Shown in pieces: positions 42,968 through 51,030 of a stretch of 64,000 nucleotides of DNA. Position numbers and translations under genes: made by a program. Position 1 is the stretch's first letter; each line of letters opens with the position of its first letter. Origin of the DNA: an uncultured Gemmiger sp. (GTDB taxonomy: Bacteria; Bacillota; Clostridia; Oscillospirales; Ruminococcaceae); contig CALWNP010000011.1 in assembly GCA_944382835.1 (NCBI GenBank), forward strand, positions 535 through 64,534. The letters run 5' to 3'. The notes below the pieces were generated by a model. The model was not told the origin of the DNA and ran no database searches. It worked only from the letters and a program-made list of their open reading frames with translations.

Positions 42968-44149
42968 ATGCTACTGGATACATGGATTGACAGATTTTGC
43001 GGCGGGGAAACGGCCGACCGCGCCAAGGTGGGCAAAAAGACCAGCCTGGTGGGGATCGGCTGCAACCTGATTCTGTTTGTTATCAAACTGGTGGCCGGCC
43101 TTCTTTCCGGCTCGTTGGCGGTGGCGGCAGATGCAGTGAACAACCTGTCGGACGCCTCTTCCAGTGTCATCAGCCTGCTGGGCTTTCAGATGGGGTCCAA
43201 GCCGGCGGACGCGGAACACCCCTATGGGCATGGCCGGTACGAGTATCTGGCCGGTCTCAGCGTTGCGGTGCTGATTCTTGTCATCGGGGTGGAGCTGCTC
43301 AAGACCAGCGTGGAGCGGACCCTGCACCCCGAGCCGGTGGATTTTACCGTGGTGACCGGCGGGGTTCTGGTGATCTCTATTATCATCAAGGCCGGCATGC
43401 AGGTCTTTTACAAGAAGGTGGGACGGAAGATTGATTCCAGCACCCTGGAAGCCACTGCCGCCGACAGCCGCAATGATGTGCTGACCACCACCGGCGTCCT
43501 GCTGGGCATGCTGGTGACCTACTTTACTGCTATCTCACTGGATGGCCCGGTGGGCCTTGCGGTGGCAGCCTTTATCCTGTACAGTGGGTTTGGGCTGATC
43601 CGGGATACCCTGGACCCGTTGCTGGGTCGGGCTCCCGAACCGGAAGAGGTGGAAGCCATCCGGCAGAAAATTCTCAGCTATCCCGGTGTGATCGGCACCC
43701 ATGACCTGCTGATCCACGACTACGGCCCCGGCCGGCAGTTCGCCAGCGCCCATGTGGAGATGTCGGCTGCGGCCGATCCCATGCAAGCCCATGACGTAAT
43801 TGACCAGATCGAGCGGGATTTCCTGGCCCAGAAGGGGCTGAATCTGGTGGTCCACATGGACCCGGTGGCTGAGGTGGATACCGCTCTGGGCCAGATGAAT
43901 GAATGGCTCTCTGCCCAGGTGCGCAGCATCGACAACACTTTGTCGGTTCACGACCTGCGGGTCATGAGCGAGGAGGATGGCCGGACCTTGCTGGAGTTTG
44001 ACTGCATGGTGCCCCGGGAAACCAACATCTCTGACGATACCCTGCGTTCCGAAGTGACCCGGCTGGTACAGAAGCGCTGGCCCCGGTCGGATTGCCGGAT
44101 CACGGTGGATCATGACTACGCCGCACTGCCCCACACTGCAGAGCGGTAA
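42968..44149 (+). CDS. cation diffusion facilitator family transporter
   Basis: ADAVNNLSD, HPYGHGRYE, DSRNDV, HDLLIHDYG; duplicated C-terminal metal-binding domain. Confidence 0.93.
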   Translation: MLLDTWIDRFCGGETADRAKVGKKTSLVGIGCNLILFVIKLVAGLLSGSLAVAADAVNNLSDASSSVISLLGFQMGSKPADAEHPYGHGRYEYLAGLSVAVLILVIGVELLKTSVERTLHPEPVDFTVVTGGVLVISIIIKAGMQVFYKKVGRKIDSSTLEATAADSRNDVLTTTGVLLGMLVTYFTAISLDGPVGLAVAAFILYSGFGLIRDTLDPLLGRAPEPEEVEAIRQKILSYPGVIGTHDLLIHDYGPGRQFASAHVEMSAAADPMQAHDVIDQIERDFLAQKGLNLVVHMDPVAEVDTALGQMNEWLSAQVRSIDNTLSVHDLRVMSEEDGRTLLEFDCMVPRETNISDDTLRSEVTRLVQKRWPRSDCRITVDHDYAALPHTAER

Positions 44150-44162
44150 ACAATCATAAAAC

Positions 44163-44203
44163 AATGCCGTCTGTCTCAGGCTGAGGCAGACGGCACTGTT
44201 TTT
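44163..44203. terminator. bidirectional terminator
   Basis: TGCCGTCTGTCTCAG/CTGAGGCAGACGGCA between convergent genes. Confidence 0.8.
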
Positions 44204-44618
44204 ACTTTTTGGCAGCGGGGGGACACAGATCCTGTAGGGTGACATGGTCGATGTAGTCGTTGATGGCCTGGTTGAGCCCTTCCCAAAAGGAAAGGGTCCG
44301 GCACTGGGGGCGGCGGGGGCAATCCTCGGCATCCGCGGCCAGACAGGGGATGGGGATGACCTCGCCCTCCACGGCGCGCAGAATATCTCCGGCCGTTATT
44401 TCAGCGGCGGGGCGGGTGAGTTGGTAGCCGCCCTGGCTGCCCCGTTCGCTGGCCAGCAGCCCGGCCCGTGCCAGAGGGGTGACGATCTGTTCCAGATATT
44501 TCAAACTGATATCCTGGCTGGTGCTGATGGCTTTGAGGGGGACAAAGGTCTCGGGTGGGCGGCTGGCCAGTTCCACCATCATCCGCAGTGCATAGCGATC
44601 TTTGGTCGAAAACTTCAT
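44202..44618 (-). CDS. Rrf2 family regulator (IscR/CymR-like) with three Cys
   Basis: RYALR, YLEQI, S.RG..GGY.L, C-X7-C-X5-C. Confidence 0.93.
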   Translation of the reverse strand: MKFSTKDRYALRMMVELASRPPETFVPLKAISTSQDISLKYLEQIVTPLARAGLLASERGSQGGYQLTRPAAEITAGDILRAVEGEVIPIPCLAADAEDCPRRPQCRTLSFWEGLNQAINDYIDHVTLQDLCPPAAKK

Positions 44619-44749
44619 GCAGTGGTCCTTCCTTTGTTTGATCTTGAGTATAGCATATCAAATTTCTATGAAACAGGCAAGGGAGCAGCCGACAATTCCT
44701 TTTAACTTTGTAGGATATTACAAATTTCTTCCGTTTATGGCCAAACGGC

Positions 44750-44778
44750 TTGACAGACAGAGAAATTCAAGCTATACT
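44750..44778 (+). promoter_or_regulatory. sigma-A promoter of the met leader and metQNI
   Basis: TTGACA-N17-TATACT. Confidence 0.9.
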
Positions 44779-44827
44779 GACGCCATAGCGATGTATCGCA
44801 AACCAGAATCGGAAAGGGGATGCTGTC

Positions 44828-44929
44828 ATGTCTCAGACTTTTGAACGCCGTGATGGCATGATGATGTGCATGTGCAGTGTGCTTCGGCAACCTGTACTTG
44901 CTTTCCCCTGCGCGTTTTTGGGAGCGTGA
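44828..44929 (+). CDS. 33-aa Met/Cys-rich leader peptide MSQTFERRDGMMMCMCSVLRQPVLAFPCAFLGA
   Basis: GGAAAGGGGA RBS 7 nt before ATG; ATG ATG ATG TGC ATG TGC at 44858-44875; TGA 44927-44929; lies between promoter and terminator. Confidence 0.8.
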   Translation: MSQTFERRDGMMMCMCSVLRQPVLAFPCAFLGA

Positions 44930-44944
44930 ACAGGGAGAATCGAG

Positions 44945-44979
44945 TGGCAGGGTGCCAGAAGGCATCCTGCCATTTTTTT
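44945..44979 (+). terminator. attenuator terminator upstream of metQ
   Basis: TGGCAGGGTGCC-agaa-GGCATCCTGCCA followed by T7. Confidence 0.9.
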
Positions 44980-45014
44980 GTCTCTTTGTTTGCAGAAAAG
45001 AGGAGGAGCCCACG

Positions 45015-45059
45015 ATGATTTACAGCCCCCGATGCCGGCAGCCGGGTGTGCGAATGTGA
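45015..45059 (+). CDS. possible 14-aa small ORF MIYSPRCRQPGVRM
   Basis: Strong GAGGAGGAG RBS about 6 nt before ATG 45015. Confidence 0.4.
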   Translation: MIYSPRCRQPGVRM

Positions 45060-45108
45060 CGCTGATCCCATCCGCCATCCACACTGACCGAACACAAAAG
45101 GAGAATGA

Positions 45109-46056
45109 ATGATGAAAAAGTTGATTTCTGCCCTGCTTGCAGCAGCCCTGACTCTGGGCCTGTCCGCCTGCGGTTCCACCGCCACCGTGGACAGCACCGC
45201 TTCTTCACAGAGCACCGCCGCTTCTTCCGAAGCCGCCTCGGAGGCAACCTCCGAAGCTACCTCGGACACTGCTTTTACCGGCGACGGTTTCGCTGCCGAT
45301 GTGGACTATGCTTCCCTGGCCGGCACCACCATCAAGGTGGGCGCCTCGCCGGTGCCCCATGCCGAGATCCTTAAGGTGGCAGGGGAGATCCTGGCCCAGG
45401 CGGACATTACCCTGGATGTGGTGGAGTTCACCGATTACATCCAGCCCAACCTGGCCACCGAGAATGGCTCGGTGGACGCCAACTACTTCCAGCACATCCT
45501 GTACCTGCAGGACTTCAACGAGCAGAACGGAACTCATCTGGTGAGCGCGGCTTCTGTCCATTACGAGCCCCTGGGCATCTACCCGGGCAAGACCACCAGC
45601 CTGGATGCCCTGGCGGACGGCGCTAAGGTGGCCGTTCCCAACGACGCCACCAACGAGGGCCGTGCCCTGCAGCTGCTGGCAGCCCAGGGATTGATCACCC
45701 TGCGGGATGGCGCCGGCCTGACCGCCACCAAGAATGACATCGTGGAAAATCCCAAGAATCTGGACATCGTCGAGATGGAAGCTGCCCAGCTGCCCCGCAC
45801 CCTGGCGGATGTGGATCTGGCGGTGATCAACGGCAACTATGCGGAACAGGCCGGCTTCTCCGCTGCCTCGGATGCCCTGGCCATCGAGGATGCCAACAGT
45901 GACATCATCAAGGACAACTACGTCAACGTCCTGGTGGTCAAGGAAGGCAACGAGAACACCCCCGCCATCAAGGCCCTGGCCGCTGCGCTGCGCAGCCAGA
46001 AGGTCAAGGACTTCATCAACGAGACCTACAATGGTGCCGTTGTGGCGGTGTTCTGA
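45109..46056 (+). CDS. metQ: methionine ABC transporter lipoprotein (MetQ/NlpA)
   Basis: Lipobox LSAC, VGASPVPHAEIL, FTDYIQPN, DANYFQH..YL, VPNDATNEGRAL. Confidence 0.95.
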   Translation: MMKKLISALLAAALTLGLSACGSTATVDSTASSQSTAASSEAASEATSEATSDTAFTGDGFAADVDYASLAGTTIKVGASPVPHAEILKVAGEILAQADITLDVVEFTDYIQPNLATENGSVDANYFQHILYLQDFNEQNGTHLVSAASVHYEPLGIYPGKTTSLDALADGAKVAVPNDATNEGRALQLLAAQGLITLRDGAGLTATKNDIVENPKNLDIVEMEAAQLPRTLADVDLAVINGNYAEQAGFSAASDALAIEDANSDIIKDNYVNVLVVKEGNENTPAIKALAAALRSQKVKDFINETYNGAVVAVF

Positions 46057-46133
46057 GAAAAAACATCAGAAAACCCGTGCAGGGAACGTCGGATTCCGGC
46101 GTTCCCTGTCGTTGTGAGACAGGGAGGCTACCC

Positions 46134-47135
46134 ATGATCGAGATTCAACACATGACCAAGCGCTTCGCCACCCAAAGCGGCACGGTGGTGGCTCTGCGGG
46201 ACATCTCGTTGAGCATCCGGGACCGGGATATCTACGGCATCATCGGGATGTCCGGCGCCGGCAAATCCACCCTGGTGCGCTGCATCAATATGCTGGAGCG
46301 CCCCGATGAGGGCACGGTGGTGGTCAACGGCCGGGAGATGAATAACTTGAACGCTGCCGAGCTGCGGGCGGCCCGGCGGGAGATCACCATGATCTTTCAG
46401 CAGTTCAATCTTTTGATGCAGCGCACCTGCCTCAAAAACATCTGTTTCCCCATGGAGCTGGCCAAGGTTCCCAAGGCCGAGGCCGTCAAGCGCGCCCGGG
46501 AGCTGCTGGAACTGGTGGGCCTTCCCGATAAAGCGGATGCCTACCCGGCCCAGCTCTCGGGCGGCCAGAAACAGCGCATTGCCATTGCCCGTGCCCTGGC
46601 CACCAATCCCAAGGTGCTGCTCTGCGATGAGGCCACCAGCGCTCTGGACCCCAACACCACCCATTCCATCCTGCAGCTGATCCGCAAGATCAACCAGGAA
46701 CTGGGCATTACGGTGGTCATCATCACCCATCAGATGAGCGTGGTGGAGGAAATCTGCAATCGGGTTGCCATCCTGGACGAGGGCACCGTGGTAGAAGAAG
46801 GGGAGGTGCAGGCCATCTTCTCCAATCCTCAGTCTGCTGCGGCAAGGCGCCTGGTCTTCCCGGGCGGAGCCGCCCGCAGCGAGATGCTGCCCGGCCGGCG
46901 GATGGTACGGGTGGCCTTCAACGGTACCCAGACCACCGACAAACCCCTGGTGGCCAGCCTGGCCATCGAGTGTGGGGCGCTGGTCTCCATCGTGGCCGCC
47001 GATACCCGCATTGTCAACGGCCAGACCCTGGGCAGCATGCTGCTGGCATTGCCCGAAAGCCGGGAGGACGCCGAAAAGGCCATGGCCTACATCCGCAATT
47101 ATCCCGGCATCACCTGTGAGGAGGTTGAAGCATGA
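46134..47135 (+). CDS. metN: methionine ABC transporter ATPase
   Basis: GMSGAGKST, LSGGQKQR, LCDEATSALDP, C-terminal NIL domain. Confidence 0.95.
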   Translation: MIEIQHMTKRFATQSGTVVALRDISLSIRDRDIYGIIGMSGAGKSTLVRCINMLERPDEGTVVVNGREMNNLNAAELRAARREITMIFQQFNLLMQRTCLKNICFPMELAKVPKAEAVKRARELLELVGLPDKADAYPAQLSGGQKQRIAIARALATNPKVLLCDEATSALDPNTTHSILQLIRKINQELGITVVIITHQMSVVEEICNRVAILDEGTVVEEGEVQAIFSNPQSAAARRLVFPGGAARSEMLPGRRMVRVAFNGTQTTDKPLVASLAIECGALVSIVAADTRIVNGQTLGSMLLALPESREDAEKAMAYIRNYPGITCEEVEA

Positions 47136-47830
47136 GTGCCCTGTTTGCATCCGAAGAATGGCAGGTCCTGATGGACAATCTGCCCACCCTCCCTTTTGCC
47201 ACCTGGGAGAGCTTTTATGCCACCATTCTGTCCACCTTCCTGGCGCTGGTCATCGGGATTCCTCTGGGGGTTCTGCTGGTGGCAGGGGAGCAGGGGGGCG
47301 TATTGCCGCTGCCCCGCTGGCTGATGCAGCTGCTCAACGTGGTCATCAATCTGCTGCGCAGCGTTCCTTTTTTGATTCTGATGATCTTTGTCATTCCTCT
47401 TTCCCAGGCCATTGTGGGTACCTCCATCGGGACGGTGGCCTCCATTGTGCCACTGGTCATTGCTTCCTTTCCCTTTGTCTCCCGTCTGGTGGAATCCAGT
47501 CTGCGGGAGGTGGACGGCGGCGTCATTGAGGCGGCCCAGAGCATGGGTGCCACCCCCATGCAGATCATCGCCAAGGTGATGATCCCCGAAAGCATGCCCA
47601 GCCTGATCTCCAACATCACCATCGCCCTGACCACCATCCTGGGCTACTCGGCCATGGCGGGCATCATCGGCGGCGGTGGACTGGGCCAGATTGCCATCAA
47701 CTATGGCTATTACCGCTACAAATATCTGATCATGGCGGTGGCCACCGCGCTGTTGGTGGTGATGGTTCAGGTGTTCCAGAGCCTGGGCACCTGGCTGGCC
47801 ACCCACTGCGACAAACGGCTGCGCCGCTGA
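47132..47830 (+). CDS. metI: methionine ABC transporter permease
   Basis: NLLRSVPFLILM, EAAQSMGA, GYSAMAG.IGGGGLG..AI.YGY.RY. Confidence 0.95.
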   Translation: MSALFASEEWQVLMDNLPTLPFATWESFYATILSTFLALVIGIPLGVLLVAGEQGGVLPLPRWLMQLLNVVINLLRSVPFLILMIFVIPLSQAIVGTSIGTVASIVPLVIASFPFVSRLVESSLREVDGGVIEAAQSMGATPMQIIAKVMIPESMPSLISNITIALTTILGYSAMAGIIGGGGLGQIAINYGYYRYKYLIMAVATALLVVMVQVFQSLGTWLATHCDKRLRR

Positions 47831-47918: not shown

Positions 47919-48045
47919 GTAGTCAAAAAGACCACCGGTTCTGCACAACAGACCGTCATTTCTTCACTGCGTCTTTGCCATGCGAGGGCAATAGTCCGGC
48001 AAAGACCAGACAACCAATTCGGCCAGGTACCGGCCTTTTGAATAG
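47919..48045 (+). ncRNA. candidate 6S-like RNA (rod-shaped hairpin with central bubble)
   Basis: TATACT -10 at 47907; nested pairings TCAAAA/TTTTGA, CCGGT/ACCGG, CCG/CGG, unpaired bubble, GTCTTTGCC/GGCAAAGAC; downstream terminator; shorter than typical 6S. Confidence 0.5.
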
Positions 48046-48058
48046 ATGGCAAAGCAAC

Positions 48059-48104
48059 AAAGCCCCGGGCGCCAAATCACAGGATTTGACGTCCGGGGCT
48101 TTTG
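48059..48104. terminator. bidirectional terminator
   Basis: AAAGCCCCGGGCGCCAAATC-acag-GATTTGACGTCCGGGGCTTT. Confidence 0.88.
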
Positions 48105-48121
48105 TCTGCGTATCGGAAAAA

Positions 48122-49174
48122 TTACAGCGCTGCGATGTCGGCCAGCAGTGCCTCCACATCCTCGTCCCGGGTGGCCCAGCTGGTGCAGAACCGCACGGCG
48201 GTGTGGGAATCGTCACACCGGGCAATCCAGGAGGTGGCGTATTTCTGGTTCAAAGTTTCCAGCCAGGCATCCGGCAGGATGGGGAACTGCTGGTTGGTGG
48301 GGCTGTCAAAGAGCATCTTGCAGCCTTTGGCCTCCAGCGCACGGCGGATCTTCATGGCCTGGTTGTTGGCCTTGGCGGCCATCTGGAAATAGGCGCTTTT
48401 GCCGGTGCCGTCCTCACCGTCCAGCAGGGCCAGGAACTGCAGTCCCAGCAAACGGCCCTTGGCCAGCATCCCGCCGTGCTGCTTGATGGCATAGCGGAAA
48501 TCCTTTTTCAGATCCTCATTGAGGATGACCAGCGCCTCGCCGAAGAGGGCACCGCACTTGGTACCGCCCAGATAAAAGACATCGCAGAGCGAGGCATAGT
48601 CCTCCAGCGACAGGTCGTTGCCCTCGCTGGTCAGGCCGTAGGCCATCCGGGCGCCGTCCACAAAGAGGTAGAGCCCGCAGTCGTAGCAGACCGCCGAGAG
48701 ATCGGTCAGGTCTTCCTTGGTGTACAGGGTGCCGTCCTCGGTGGGGTTGGAGATGTACACCATGCCGGGCTGCACCACATGCTCGTGGTTGTCCAGCGCC
48801 CAGTGTTCTTCGTAGGCATCCTTGACCTGCTGGGCGGTGATTTTGCCCTGCACCGACGGCAAGGCCAGGCATTTGTGCCCGGTGGCTTCCACCGAACCGG
48901 TCTCATGGACATTGATATGGCCGCTATCGGCGCACAGAACCCCCTGCCAAGGCTTGAGGGCCGCATCGATGACGGTCAGGTTGGCCTGGGTGGCGCCCAC
49001 CATGAAATGGACATCGGCCTGGGGGGCATCGCACAGACGGCGGATCAGCTCCTGGGCCTTGGCACAGTATTCATCCATGCCGTAGCCGGGGGTCTGCTCC
49101 AGATTGGTCTTCTGCATCAGATCCAGCACCGGCTGGGCGGCACCTTCCCCGTAATCGCACTCAAAACGAATCAT
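48122..49174 (-). CDS. ltaE: low-specificity L-threonine aldolase family enzyme
   Basis: F.CDY.EG, HINVHETG, YISNPTEDGT.Y, DGARM, GGTKCG (PLP lysine). Confidence 0.9.
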   Translation of the reverse strand: MIRFECDYGEGAAQPVLDLMQKTNLEQTPGYGMDEYCAKAQELIRRLCDAPQADVHFMVGATQANLTVIDAALKPWQGVLCADSGHINVHETGSVEATGHKCLALPSVQGKITAQQVKDAYEEHWALDNHEHVVQPGMVYISNPTEDGTLYTKEDLTDLSAVCYDCGLYLFVDGARMAYGLTSEGNDLSLEDYASLCDVFYLGGTKCGALFGEALVILNEDLKKDFRYAIKQHGGMLAKGRLLGLQFLALLDGEDGTGKSAYFQMAAKANNQAMKIRRALEAKGCKMLFDSPTNQQFPILPDAWLETLNQKYATSWIARCDDSHTAVRFCTSWATRDEDVEALLADIAAL

Positions 49175-49192
49175 ATACTTCCACACTCACGT

Positions 49193-49564
49193 TTAGCTTT
49201 GTTCCCCAAAATATTTGCGGATGCAGCGCATGCTTTCCTCGCTGATCACATGCTCGATGCGGCAGGCATCCTGCGCCGCAACTTCGGGGCTGACCCCAAT
49301 TTTTTCCAGGACGGCGGTCAGAGCGCGGTGCCGGCCGTACACGCCCTGTGCCAGGGCCAGACCCTCCTCGGTCAGGGTCAGCGCCCCGTCATGGGGGTCC
49401 ATCTCCAGCAGCCCGCTGCTTTTCAGCAGACTGATGGCGCGGCTGACACTGGGCTTGGTCACGCCCAGATGCTCAGCCACATCGATGCTGCGCACATAGG
49501 GATTTTCCTGACTGAGCATGAGGATGGTTTCGAGGTAATCCTCGCGTGATTCGGTCGGACGCAT
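49193..49564 (-). CDS. DtxR/MntR-family metal-dependent regulator (short form)
   Basis: EDYLETI, VRSIDVAEHLGVTKPSVS, DACRIEHVIS. Confidence 0.92.
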   Translation of the reverse strand: MRPTESREDYLETILMLSQENPYVRSIDVAEHLGVTKPSVSRAISLLKSSGLLEMDPHDGALTLTEEGLALAQGVYGRHRALTAVLEKIGVSPEVAAQDACRIEHVISEESMRCIRKYFGEQS

Positions 49565-49658: not shown

Positions 49659-49687
49659 TTGACAGGCAGGGGATGGTCGGATATAAT
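49659..49687 (+). promoter_or_regulatory. sigma-A promoter
   Basis: TTGACA-N17-TATAAT, exact consensus. Confidence 0.92.
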
Positions 49688-49693
49688 AACCTG

Positions 49694-49752
49694 CGGGAAT
49701 GAAGTTCTCCCGTGGGAAACCAAAACCGCTTTTGACGAGCTGATGACTTCTG
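49694..49752 (+). ncRNA. fluoride riboswitch (crcB motif)
   Basis: GGGAATGAAGTTCTCCC...AAACCGCT...GCTGATGACTTCT matches the crcB aptamer pattern including the GAAGT/ACTTC pseudoknot. Confidence 0.92.
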
Positions 49753-49787
49753 TGATGGAATGGATCGCAGAAGGCATCAGCTCTTTT
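49737..49787 (+). terminator. riboswitch expression-platform terminator
   Basis: GAGCTGATGACTTCTGTGAT/ATCGCAGAAGGCATCAGCTC 20-bp stem plus TTTT, overlapping the 3' half of the aptamer. Confidence 0.85.
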
Positions 49788-49809
49788 GCGTCCGAAAGGA
49801 GTTTTGTGT

Positions 49810-51030
49810 ATGTTGACCTCCCTGGCACTGATCTTTTTGGTGGGGCTGTCGCTGGCAGCCCTCTGTCAGCAGCTGCGGCTGCCCCGCATCATCGGGATGC
49901 TCTTCACCGGCATCCTGTTGGGGCCCCATCTGCTCAACCTTTTGGACCCGTCCATCCTCTCCATCTCAGCGGATCTGCGGCAGATGGCCCTGATCATTAT
50001 TCTGATCAAGGCCGGTCTGTCCCTGAACCTGGCCGACCTCAAGCGGGTGGGGCGCCCGGCCGTCCTGATGTGCTTTCTACCCGCCTCCTTTGAAATGCTG
50101 GCGTTCTGGCTGCTGGCGCCCTCCTTGCTGGGCATCACCCGGGTGGAAGCAGCGGTCATGGGGGCAGTGCTGGGGGCGGTATCTCCCGCTATTGTGGTGC
50201 CCCGGATGGTCCAGCTTATGGAAACCGGGTACGGTACCAAGAAGGGCATCCCTCAGATGATCCTGGCGGGGGCTTCCTGCGACGACATCTATGTGATTGT
50301 GCTGTTCACCACCTTCACCGGCATGGCCCAGGGGAGCGATGCCAGCCTGTGGGCACTGGCTGGGGTGCCGGTGTCCATCCTATTGGGGGTTCTGCTGGGC
50401 GCCCTGGTGGGGGTGGGACTGGCGTACTTTTTTGAAACGGCCTATGCCCACCGGCACTATGTCCGCAACAGCATGAAGGTGATCCTGGTGCTGGGCATTG
50501 CCTTTCTGTTGATTGCAGTGGAAAACGCCCTCAAAGGCATTGTACCGGTTTCGGGGCTGCTGGCGGTGGTCAGCATGGCCTGCGTACTCCATATAAAATG
50601 CACCCCGTTTGTCTCCTGCCGCTTGGCCGAGAAGTTCGGCAAGCTGTGGCTGGCCGCCGAGGTCATCCTCTTTGTCCTGGTGGGGGCGGCGGTGGACATC
50701 CGCTACACCCTGGAGGCCGGTCCGATGGCGGTGCTGATGATCCTGCTGGCGCTGGTGTTCCGGATGCTCGGGGTGCAGCTCTGTGTGCTGGGCACCTCGC
50801 TGACCCGGCGGGAACGGCTCTTCTGTGCCATTGCCTACCTGCCCAAGGCCACGGTTCAGGCGGCCATCGGTTCGGTGCCGCTGGCCCTGGGGCTGCCCTG
50901 CGGCAAATTGGTGCTCTCGGTGGCGGTGCTGGCCATCCTGATCACCGCACCGCTGGGGGCACTGGGGATCGATCTGAGTTTTCCGCGCTGCCTGGAGCGG
51001 ACAGAATTGCCGGCAGGGGAGAGGCAATAA
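49810..51030 (+). CDS. cation:proton antiporter (CPA1/NHA-like)
   Basis: About 12 TM helices; LRQMALIIILIKAGL, AVSPAIVVP, ASCDDI, YLPKATVQAAIG. Confidence 0.88.
   Translation: MLTSLALIFLVGLSLAALCQQLRLPRIIGMLFTGILLGPHLLNLLDPSILSISADLRQMALIIILIKAGLSLNLADLKRVGRPAVLMCFLPASFEMLAFWLLAPSLLGITRVEAAVMGAVLGAVSPAIVVPRMVQLMETGYGTKKGIPQMILAGASCDDIYVIVLFTTFTGMAQGSDASLWALAGVPVSILLGVLLGALVGVGLAYFFETAYAHRHYVRNSMKVILVLGIAFLLIAVENALKGIVPVSGLLAVVSMACVLHIKCTPFVSCRLAEKFGKLWLAAEVILFVLVGAAVDIRYTLEAGPMAVLMILLALVFRMLGVQLCVLGTSLTRRERLFCAIAYLPKATVQAAIGSVPLALGLPCGKLVLSVAVLAILITAPLGALGIDLSFPRCLERTELPAGERQ

Follow-up and report, generated by a model that had tools for sequence, protein, structure and literature searches.

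We propose that a short region of a gut bacterial genome is a ribosome-mediated leader-peptide transcription attenuator, in which the supply of charged Met-tRNA would set the level of read-through into metQNI, the genes of a methionine importer. The region lies at 44750-44979 of a 64,000-nucleotide (nt) stretch from an uncultured Gemmiger sp. (contig CALWNP010000011.1), which was analysed as a whole and is called the window here. From sequence comparison and structure prediction we give this reading a probability of roughly 0.7. All of the sequence features of such an attenuator were found: an open reading frame (ORF) led by a Shine-Dalgarno site, Met codons that match the metQNI genes downstream, a terminator, an antiterminator, and an anti-antiterminator that overlaps the Met and Cys codons. 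The original prediction for this DNA was a trp-type leader-peptide attenuator in front of a methionine importer, and that idea is supported by conservation of the ORF and its Met run, by the lack of an Rfam match, and by an antiterminator that covaries between species. The core of the predicted switch was borne out, but it was incomplete, since it included neither the anti-antiterminator nor a helix around the start codon, a second upstream ORF (uORF) and a divergent Rrf2-family gene, all of which we found. The features of the leader are as follows, with helices numbered by the RNA regions that they join.

44750-44778, + strand: sigma-70-type promoter, TTGACA-17 nt-TATACT, matching 11/12 consensus positions
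44811-44819, + strand: Shine-Dalgarno site GGAAAGGGG, 8 nt 5' of the ATG at 44828
44820-44859, + strand: helix 0, AUGCUGUCAUG (44820-30) paired with CGUGAUGGCAU (44849-59), enclosing the start codon and the variable N-terminal codons
44828-44929, + strand: leader ORF of 33 codons, MSQTFERRDGMMMCMCSVLRQPVLAFPCAFLGA; found in 22 species-level genomes, its start shifting in frame between lineages
44858-44875, + strand: regulatory codons ATG ATG ATG TGC ATG TGC (Met-Met-Met-Cys-Met-Cys, codons 11-16)
44868-44901, + strand: anti-antiterminator 1:2, GCAUGUGCAG (44868-77, the Cys-Met-Cys-Ser codons) paired with CCUGUACUUGC (44892-901)
44883-44960, + strand: antiterminator 2:3, 44886-44911 paired with 44931-44956, the 5' arm of the terminator included
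44927-44929, + strand: stop codon of the leader ORF, within the loop that separates regions 2 and 3
44942-44979, + strand: intrinsic terminator 3:4 followed by U7, present in every copy

The leader ORF and its methionine codons

Re-reading the sequence placed the Shine-Dalgarno site, the 33-codon ORF and the six sulfur-amino-acid codons exactly where they had been predicted, and a 5' leader of about 40 nt precedes the ORF. Over both strands and all frames of the window, chance would give 0.0009 runs of at least six Met or Cys codons, and one was observed, at 44858-44875; the run is therefore not a product of chance.

Homologous leaders were sought by an exact pattern, GAYGGNATGATGATGTGYATGTG, in one genome per species. 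It matched 16 genomes (Gemmiger, Subdoligranulum, Faecalibacterium metagenome-assembled genomes (MAGs), Cibiobacter and Oscillospiraceae), and all 16 matches lie directly 5' of a metQ-like lipoprotein gene. A scan with a pattern for the second uORF (ORF2, described below) gave six further loci, five of which carry variant leaders that the first pattern had missed. We refer below to 22 species copies, meaning the window and 21 other species-level genomes; the first 17 copies were counted separately for the position of the stop codon. The MetQ proteins of these genomes are 63-77% identical to that of the window, so the species that carry the leader are well diverged, and the core of the leader is nearly invariant. 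Further afield the leader is rare: among 80 loci chosen as relatives of MetQ a homologous leader was present in one (L001), and a covariance model built from the Shine-Dalgarno site, helix 0, the Met run and helix 1:2 found the window and L001 only in 82 sources. A metagenome scan in which the nine Met and nine Cys-Met-Cys positions were left free returned about 87 true copies, mostly of one abundant species, together with about 10 chance matches in unrelated genes.

The AUG-AUG-AUG run (AUGAUGAUG) is unchanged in 22/22 species copies, and it sits in a linker that is unpaired between two helices in the predicted structures. Pairing therefore cannot explain its invariance, while the coding of Met, which has a single codon, does. 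Among the metagenome copies MMM is likewise kept, except for one contig that reads MMK. The leaders carry three to five internal Met codons and zero to two Cys codons. The three codons that follow the run are less constant: C14 is R in L100, M15 is L in L099, and C16 is Y in L101, L103 and L104, as well as in L128, a close metagenome relative of the window. The TGC-to-TAC change at C16 is accompanied by a change of the partner base, which argues that conservation of the Cys-Met-Cys codons is partly structural. Judged from these alignments, Met is the conserved signal of the leader family and Cys sensing is not conserved across it. The dual Met/Cys sensing put forward originally thus stands for Met (MMM in 22/22) and fails for Cys as a family trait (C14 replaced by R once, C16 by Y in three species copies). 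A response to Cys-tRNA beside Met is plausible in this particular genome, since stalling on either of the two Cys codons would change the structure in the same way.

The boundaries of the ORF are kept more strictly than the peptide itself. In all copies an in-frame start stands behind a purine-rich Shine-Dalgarno site, even though the start is shifted, still in frame, in L081, L082, L093, L099, L103 and L104. The AUG of GUCAUG serves as start in the window and Gemmiger types, and L082/L086 have theirs 5 nt downstream of that position. L081, L099, L103 and L104 have a shortened N-terminus, MYRR, and the only in-frame start in L093 is UUG. Where the start codon is in the same place (window, Gemmiger and L089 types), its distance from the core varies by whole codons only. 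On the 3' side of the Met run, indels of 1 nt shift the frame relative to the homologous nucleotides (L082, L089), and the C-terminal peptide is not conserved. The distance from the GAY codon to the stop codon is nonetheless 66 or 75 nt throughout the first 17 copies, and the stop lies immediately 5' of region 3; in L103 it comes one codon later. Retention of the ORF boundaries without retention of the peptide tail is predicted for a regulatory leader and not for a functional small protein. Neither the leader peptide nor the ORF2 peptide matches a Pfam or NCBIfam family, and exact-sequence look-up of seven leader peptides found none among public gene calls.

A different Met/Cys-rich uORF, MTGSFGFVIMSMENMCSMRMCFVMPISGKYSDQAKKPAV, precedes another metQ at L003:1209-1392 and in L004. 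It has six internal Met codons and two Cys codons across 15 codons, its own Shine-Dalgarno site, its own terminator and a plausible antiterminator. The covariance model did not detect it as a homologue of the window leader, and a pattern scan found no leader of this type beyond the same two MAGs, so that the case consists of two near-identical Oscillospiraceae contigs. If this leader is independent in origin, it would indicate selection on the codons and not on a particular RNA sequence.

Predicted helices, terminator and antiterminator

The leader folds 5.7 standard deviations better than dinucleotide shuffles of itself. Helix 0 (predicted energy -14.0 kcal/mol) is paired in 97% of alignment cells over 17 sequences, with changes from G-U to G-C and from U-G to C-G, and its GCYGUC/GAUGGY core is also intact in copies whose start codon now lies in the loop. 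Helix 1:2 (-15.7 kcal/mol) is paired in about 92.6-96% of cells, compared with 20-48% for controls in which the partner strand was slid. One of its pairs is G-U in eight sequences, G-C in six and A-U in four, and is never unpaired. The tip of this helix, GC-UUCG-GC in the window (44881-88), is C(UNCG)G in almost all copies, with UUCG, UGCG and UCCG all represented; L099 has CUCG instead, and one metagenome contig has UACG.

The 12-bp terminator with T7 is present at its predicted position. Its core pairs 44945-44956 with 44961-44972 around the loop AGAA, and T7 follows at 44973-44979; a terminator scan extends the stem to 15 pairs (44942-44975) with a predicted energy of -26.7 kcal/mol. Across species the terminator occurs in three sequence types, GGCAGGGCGCC..., GCGGCGGCGUGCCG... 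and GAGCGGAACGCCG..., and in all of them GCCG is kept at the apex.

The antiterminator had been predicted as a pairing between GGCAACCTG (44886-94) and CAGGGTGCC (44948-56) with an inward extension. These segments are complementary at 8/9 positions and the extension also folds, in agreement with that proposal. Because full-length folding cannot discriminate between the states, we used truncated folds, in which the transcript ends at the terminator loop, before the 3' arm exists. In the truncated folds of 15 lineage representatives, region 2 paired with region 3 at -29 to -42 kcal/mol, compared with -22 to -32 kcal/mol for the terminators. The antiterminator also formed in most lineages when the nucleotides under a stalled ribosome were held single-stranded, although this was less clear in the L089/L095 type.

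The outer helix of the antiterminator joins UNCGGC, which comprises the tetraloop and closing pairs of helix 1:2, to GCCGNR, the apex and loop of the terminator. The variable base of the tetraloop is the third base of a Leu codon and is thus free to vary at the coding level. This base and its partner in the terminator loop form U-A in Gemmiger, L100 and L101, G-C in L081, L093, L103 and L104, C-G in L082/L086 and L095, and U-G in the window, L089 and L094/L128; the exceptions are L099 and one metagenome singleton. For statistics we built a small alignment of the outer helix by a fixed rule that took the last GC(C/U)(G/A) in the terminator 5' arm plus loop and made no use of the identity of N. 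In this alignment 95.2% of cells pair, against 89.0 +/- 2.0 in shuffles, and the covariation score is 0.295 against 0.159, a value that 2/500 shuffles reach. Both sides have changed in 7 cells where 1.7 were expected (1/500). A tally of the covarying pair gave CG, GC, UA and UG three times each. Covariation from loop to loop in this way points to a second RNA fold that excludes the first.

Proposed switch and alternative readings

In the mechanism that we propose, transcription would begin at the 44750-44778 promoter and a ribosome would load at the Shine-Dalgarno site and AUG (44811-44830). The regulatory codons lie just 5' of, and form the 5' arm of, the UNCG-capped hairpin 1:2, which would lock up region 2 (44883-44911); alternatively, region 2 could pair with region 3 (44931-44956), which holds the 5' arm of the terminator. 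When charged Met-tRNA is scarce, the ribosome would stall on the Met run and cover arm 1, so that 2:3 forms, the terminator is blocked and transcription reads through into ORF2 and metQNI. With ample Met, the ribosome would reach the stop codon at 44927 and cover the inner part of the antiterminator, while 1:2, a hairpin that is nucleated by its UNCG loop and folds fast, re-forms behind it; the terminator would then form and transcription would end. If the leader is not translated, 1:2 and 3:4 would both form, again ending transcription. Helix 0 ends at the first Met codon, and we speculate that it might act as a pause hairpin for the polymerase or delay ribosome loading, synchronising the two machines.

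The ribosome footprint reaches about 15 nt to the 5' side of the A-site codon and 12-15 nt to its 3' side. With a footprint of this commonly assumed size, a ribosome halted at Met12 to Met15 (as A-site codon) would cover 44868-77 and free the RNA from 44883 onward, and a ribosome at the stop codon would cover about 44912-44941. The match between regulatory codons and the cognate pathway is the classical signature of leader-peptide attenuation (PMC1183508).

Several observations weigh against this mechanism. Minimum-energy folding of the full-length leader yields the terminator in every state, that with the stalled-ribosome constraint among them, so the switch must be kinetic, as in trp. Of the two states originally envisaged, the antiterminated one is hence recovered in truncated folds and lost in full-length ones. 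The duplex between region 2 and the terminator 5' arm is no better in energy than that with shuffled region 2 (p 0.16-0.9); the signal is in the contact of apex and loop. The start codon is partly paired within helix 0 (-14 kcal/mol) in the window lineage. A shortage of Met should limit charging of the initiator (formylmethionyl-tRNA, fMet-tRNA) as well, which could blunt the response. Synonymous variation is restricted in the leader core, where GAT, AGT, CGG and CCT barely vary, indicating strong constraint at the RNA level, and the variability of the Cys codons and Met15 across copies counts against dual sensing. Among RNA data, four metatranscriptome runs gave zero reads, and chicken-gut metatranscriptome contigs on the Gemmiger formicilis homologue cover the end of ORF2 and metQ, and not the leader. 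A further gut metatranscriptome (run X1) yielded one adaptor-flanked contig, from a related strain, that matches 44810-44935 with 4 mismatches. It spans the leader only, from just 5' of the Shine-Dalgarno site to just 3' of the stop codon, and is a weak sign of a short leader RNA in vivo.

We also compared the region with known RNA elements. At gathering score, Rfam models matched only a tRNA and a fluoride riboswitch in the whole window, both of them elsewhere. At E values up to 10, the interval 44600-45150 gave only asX1, at 29 bits (gathering score 70) over the terminator hairpin, and two chance matches to microRNAs. S-box, the other S-adenosylmethionine (SAM) classes and T-box were therefore rejected for this interval, and the S-box/T-box comparison named at the outset as one that could overturn the attenuator found no model that scores the leader. 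The same models applied to 20 other metQ loci found one T-box (L011) and no S-box, which has little bearing on what the leader replaced.

The alternatives differ mainly in what they make of the ORF. Conservation of the core nucleotides beyond the need of codon sensing, together with the restricted synonymous sites, would suit an undescribed riboswitch, or an RNA that binds a protein or tRNA, with the ORF merely incidental. Helix 0, the invariant GAUGAUGU linker and helix 1:2 could then make up a binding pocket (for SAM, Met or a similar metabolite) and so stabilise the anti-antiterminator. The linker is indeed invariant though unpaired, riboswitches use the same terminator/antiterminator logic, and methionine genes of Firmicutes are, as a matter of general knowledge, usually under RNA sensors. 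We nevertheless think such a riboswitch unlikely. No SAM class or T-box matches, the predicted structure is two simple hairpins with no evident multi-stem junction or pseudoknot, and features of translation persist: the Shine-Dalgarno site and in-frame start survive rearrangement of the 5' part, and the stop position is held in the first 17 copies despite frame-shifting indels. The different Met-rich uORF of L003/L004 points the same way.

Granting that the uORF is translated and controls the terminator, it might report general translation capacity or coupling, or its peptide might act in trans. Trans-acting leader peptides exist, peTrpL being an example (PMC7298713), and the ERRDG and LRQP parts of the peptide are conserved too; helix 0 could also tune initiation. 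The conserved non-Met codons, however, fall on nucleotides that pair in helices 0 and 1:2, and RNA structure thus explains their conservation. The C-terminal peptide is not merely variable but even changes frame, no Pfam or NCBIfam family covers the peptide, and public annotation does not call it as a gene. The invariant element is, moreover, a run of the very amino acid that the downstream transporter imports, and we regard both versions as quite improbable. Control might instead lie mainly with the divergent Rrf2 (CymR/IscR-like) repressor, the leader being a constitutive partial terminator or an RNA-stability element. The Rrf2 gene and ATAGGAAA-like boxes are kept beside the promoter, and the dominance of the terminator in all full-length folds would suit a constitutive element. 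This would leave the invariant Met run, the kept ORF boundaries and the covariation of tetraloop and terminator loop without explanation. In addition, L081, L103 and L104 keep the leader with no divergent gene start in the 150 nt displayed 5' of their promoters, and we consider control of this kind very improbable.

Neighbouring features and relation to known systems

The features around the leader are listed here, from the divergent gene to the importer operon.

44202-44618, - strand: divergent Rrf2-family regulator gene, IscR/CymR-like (Pfam Rrf2, E=1e-39)
44707-44724, no strand assigned: candidate operator, inverted repeat TTTGTA-N6-TACAAA with GTAGGA inside (TTTGTAGGATATTACAAA), read from the sequence
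44999-45008, + strand: strong Shine-Dalgarno site of ORF2, AGAGGAGGAG, 3' of the terminator
45015-45059, + strand: ORF2, 14 codons, MIYSPRCRQPGVRM, peptide conserved
45060-45095, + strand: C-rich, G-poor spacer (C 0.44, G 0.14) from ORF2 to the metQ ribosome-binding site
45109-46056, + strand: metQ (Pfam NlpA lipoprotein)
46077-47135, + strand: metN (Pfam ABC_tran plus NIL domain)
47132-47830, + strand: metI (Pfam BPD_transp_1)

The genes after the leader are those of the methionine ABC transporter, as predicted; Pfam domains fit, and the best NCBIfam matches are the MetQ, MetN and MetI models, all under their curated cut-offs. The promoter also lies where it had been placed, with its -35 and -10 hexamers kept in related loci, and it is the sole promoter-like site in 44000-46000. 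On its other side, the divergent gene product scores above the cut-off of NCBIfam rrf2_super and below those of the equivalog models for IscR and CymR. Most related loci keep the divergent gene start, and most have (A/G)TAGGAAA-like boxes 5' of the -35 hexamer. The inverted repeat at 44707-44724, a candidate operator, is presumably CymR-box-like. From this arrangement, it is probably an operator through which the Rrf2 regulator adds control at initiation. Downstream of the operon, directly 3' of metI, a 524-residue ORF (47975-49549, + strand) has no Pfam or NCBIfam match. The fluoride riboswitch (Rfam RF01734, 42.7 bits) is at 49686-49759, directly 5' of a Na+/H+ exchanger family gene (49786-51030).

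ORF2 differs from the leader ORF in how it is conserved. Its peptide, M-x-x-(S/G)-P-x-C-x-Q-P-G-V-R-M, is kept in 21 loci (homologues in L082-L104), and third positions are free: Pro is CCC, CCG, CCT or CCA, Gly is GGT, GGC or GGG, Gln is CAG or CAA, and Cys is TGC or TGT. The residues P, C, Q, P, G and V are each encoded by two to four synonymous codons. Preservation of the peptide with free synonymous variation indicates that the peptide itself is under purifying selection. For Arg only CGA is used; AUG comes next, and then UGA or UGY (Cys, read on). ORF2 is missing in L081, and in L102 it is present without the Met leader. L102 (Candidatus Gemmiger avicola, at a contig end) keeps ORF2 and metQ, and several short GC-rich palindromes (AGCCCCTTAAGGGGC, GGCCCCTTGAGGGGC and CCCCCGGCTTCGCCGGGGG) replace the leader, in a stretch that could be a repeat element inserted there.

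The spacer between ORF2 and metQ has more C than G in 16/16 copies measured (C 0.21-0.44, G 0.12-0.27), with variable length and no conserved structure. In these respects it resembles a Rho-loading site. From its pattern of conservation, ORF2 may be a regulatory nascent peptide. It may be comparable to peptides of the TnaC/SpeFL type: the uORF is short and conserved, its Shine-Dalgarno site is strong, and a C-rich spacer separates it from the regulated gene. Conservation at the amino-acid level, the TnaC-like trait, was found in ORF2 from sequence alone. ORF2 has no sequence similarity to TnaC or SpeFL, and for ORF2 arrest, ligand and a role of Rho are hypothetical. A two-tier sensor, in which the Met attenuator is followed by an ORF2 arrest peptide that stalls at its last codons according to sulfur amino-acid status and gates Rho loading or metQ translation on the C-rich spacer, is a tentative and rather unlikely extension of the attenuator reading. 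If true, it would add a new family of regulatory arrest peptides in abundant gut commensals.

Leader-peptide attenuation is textbook knowledge for Trp, His, Phe, Leu, Thr and Ile/Val, and for methionine genes the known modes of control are SAM riboswitches, T-boxes and protein regulators. S-box (SAM-I) and Met T-box leaders occupy the same position and use terminator/antiterminator control of methionine uptake genes, but in them a large structured RNA senses SAM or uncharged tRNA directly and there is no ORF. The enteric attenuators (trpL, hisL, pheL, thrL, leuL, ilvL/ivbL) are close to the window leader in design. They share a short translated leader with a cluster of cognate codons, helices 1:2, 2:3 and 3:4, a stop codon at which an unstalled ribosome keeps 2:3 from forming, and a terminator that is the more stable fold, so that control is kinetic (PMC1183508 and general knowledge). 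The window leader differs from them in that it would sense Met and control an importer instead of a biosynthetic operon, and in that it occurs in Clostridia (Oscillospirales). It also has an extra helix at the start codon, a UNCG tetraloop whose variable base, in the alternative fold, is paired to the loop of the terminator, and a second uORF behind it, and no sequence similarity to the enteric leaders was detected (no NCBIfam or Pfam match).

Leader peptides that sense other amino acids are documented in Gram-positive bacteria. A His leader of hisS/hisZ paralogues is described in bacilli (PMC2965389), and a Leu-rich attenuator peptide of ilv-leu is reported in S. aureus (PMC5794164). Both indicate that the mechanism exists in Gram-positives beside T-boxes; their amino acids, taxa and sequences are unrelated to those of the window leader. 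For sulfur amino acids, Cys leaders have been predicted in Actinobacteria, where the same survey reports no RNA regulatory structure upstream of methionine operons (PMC1262725). The mycobacterial polycysteine uORFs (Canestrari et al., bioRxiv 10.1101/834739) are similar to the window leader in that hungry codons for a sulfur amino acid and ribosome stalling control downstream genes of sulfur metabolism. They are leaderless, however, carry Cys runs and unmask a downstream ribosome-binding site with no intrinsic terminator. The window leader has a Shine-Dalgarno site, a Met run, an intrinsic terminator and no more than two Cys codons, which are not adjacent, and so falls outside that class. A full-text literature search found no description of a Met-codon leader-peptide attenuator; coverage was incomplete, and a prior description elsewhere is possible. 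The view that neither a Met nor a Met/Cys case had been characterised therefore held for Met in the literature searched and not for Cys, for which the mycobacterial uORFs are known. As far as its sequence goes, the window leader looks like the classical mechanism with a new amino acid, taxon and target, and like the first Met-sensing attenuator of the trp type.

Met is also the initiator amino acid, which poses the puzzle of a ribosome that starts the ORF and yet stalls inside it. Clean mutational tests are possible for the covarying loop-to-loop contact and for the second uORF in tandem. If true, a conserved Met attenuator would fill the Met gap among leader-peptide systems and add one of the rare examples in Clostridia. 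It would also offer a handle on how gut commensals of the Gemmiger, Subdoligranulum and Faecalibacterium group sense sulfur amino acids.

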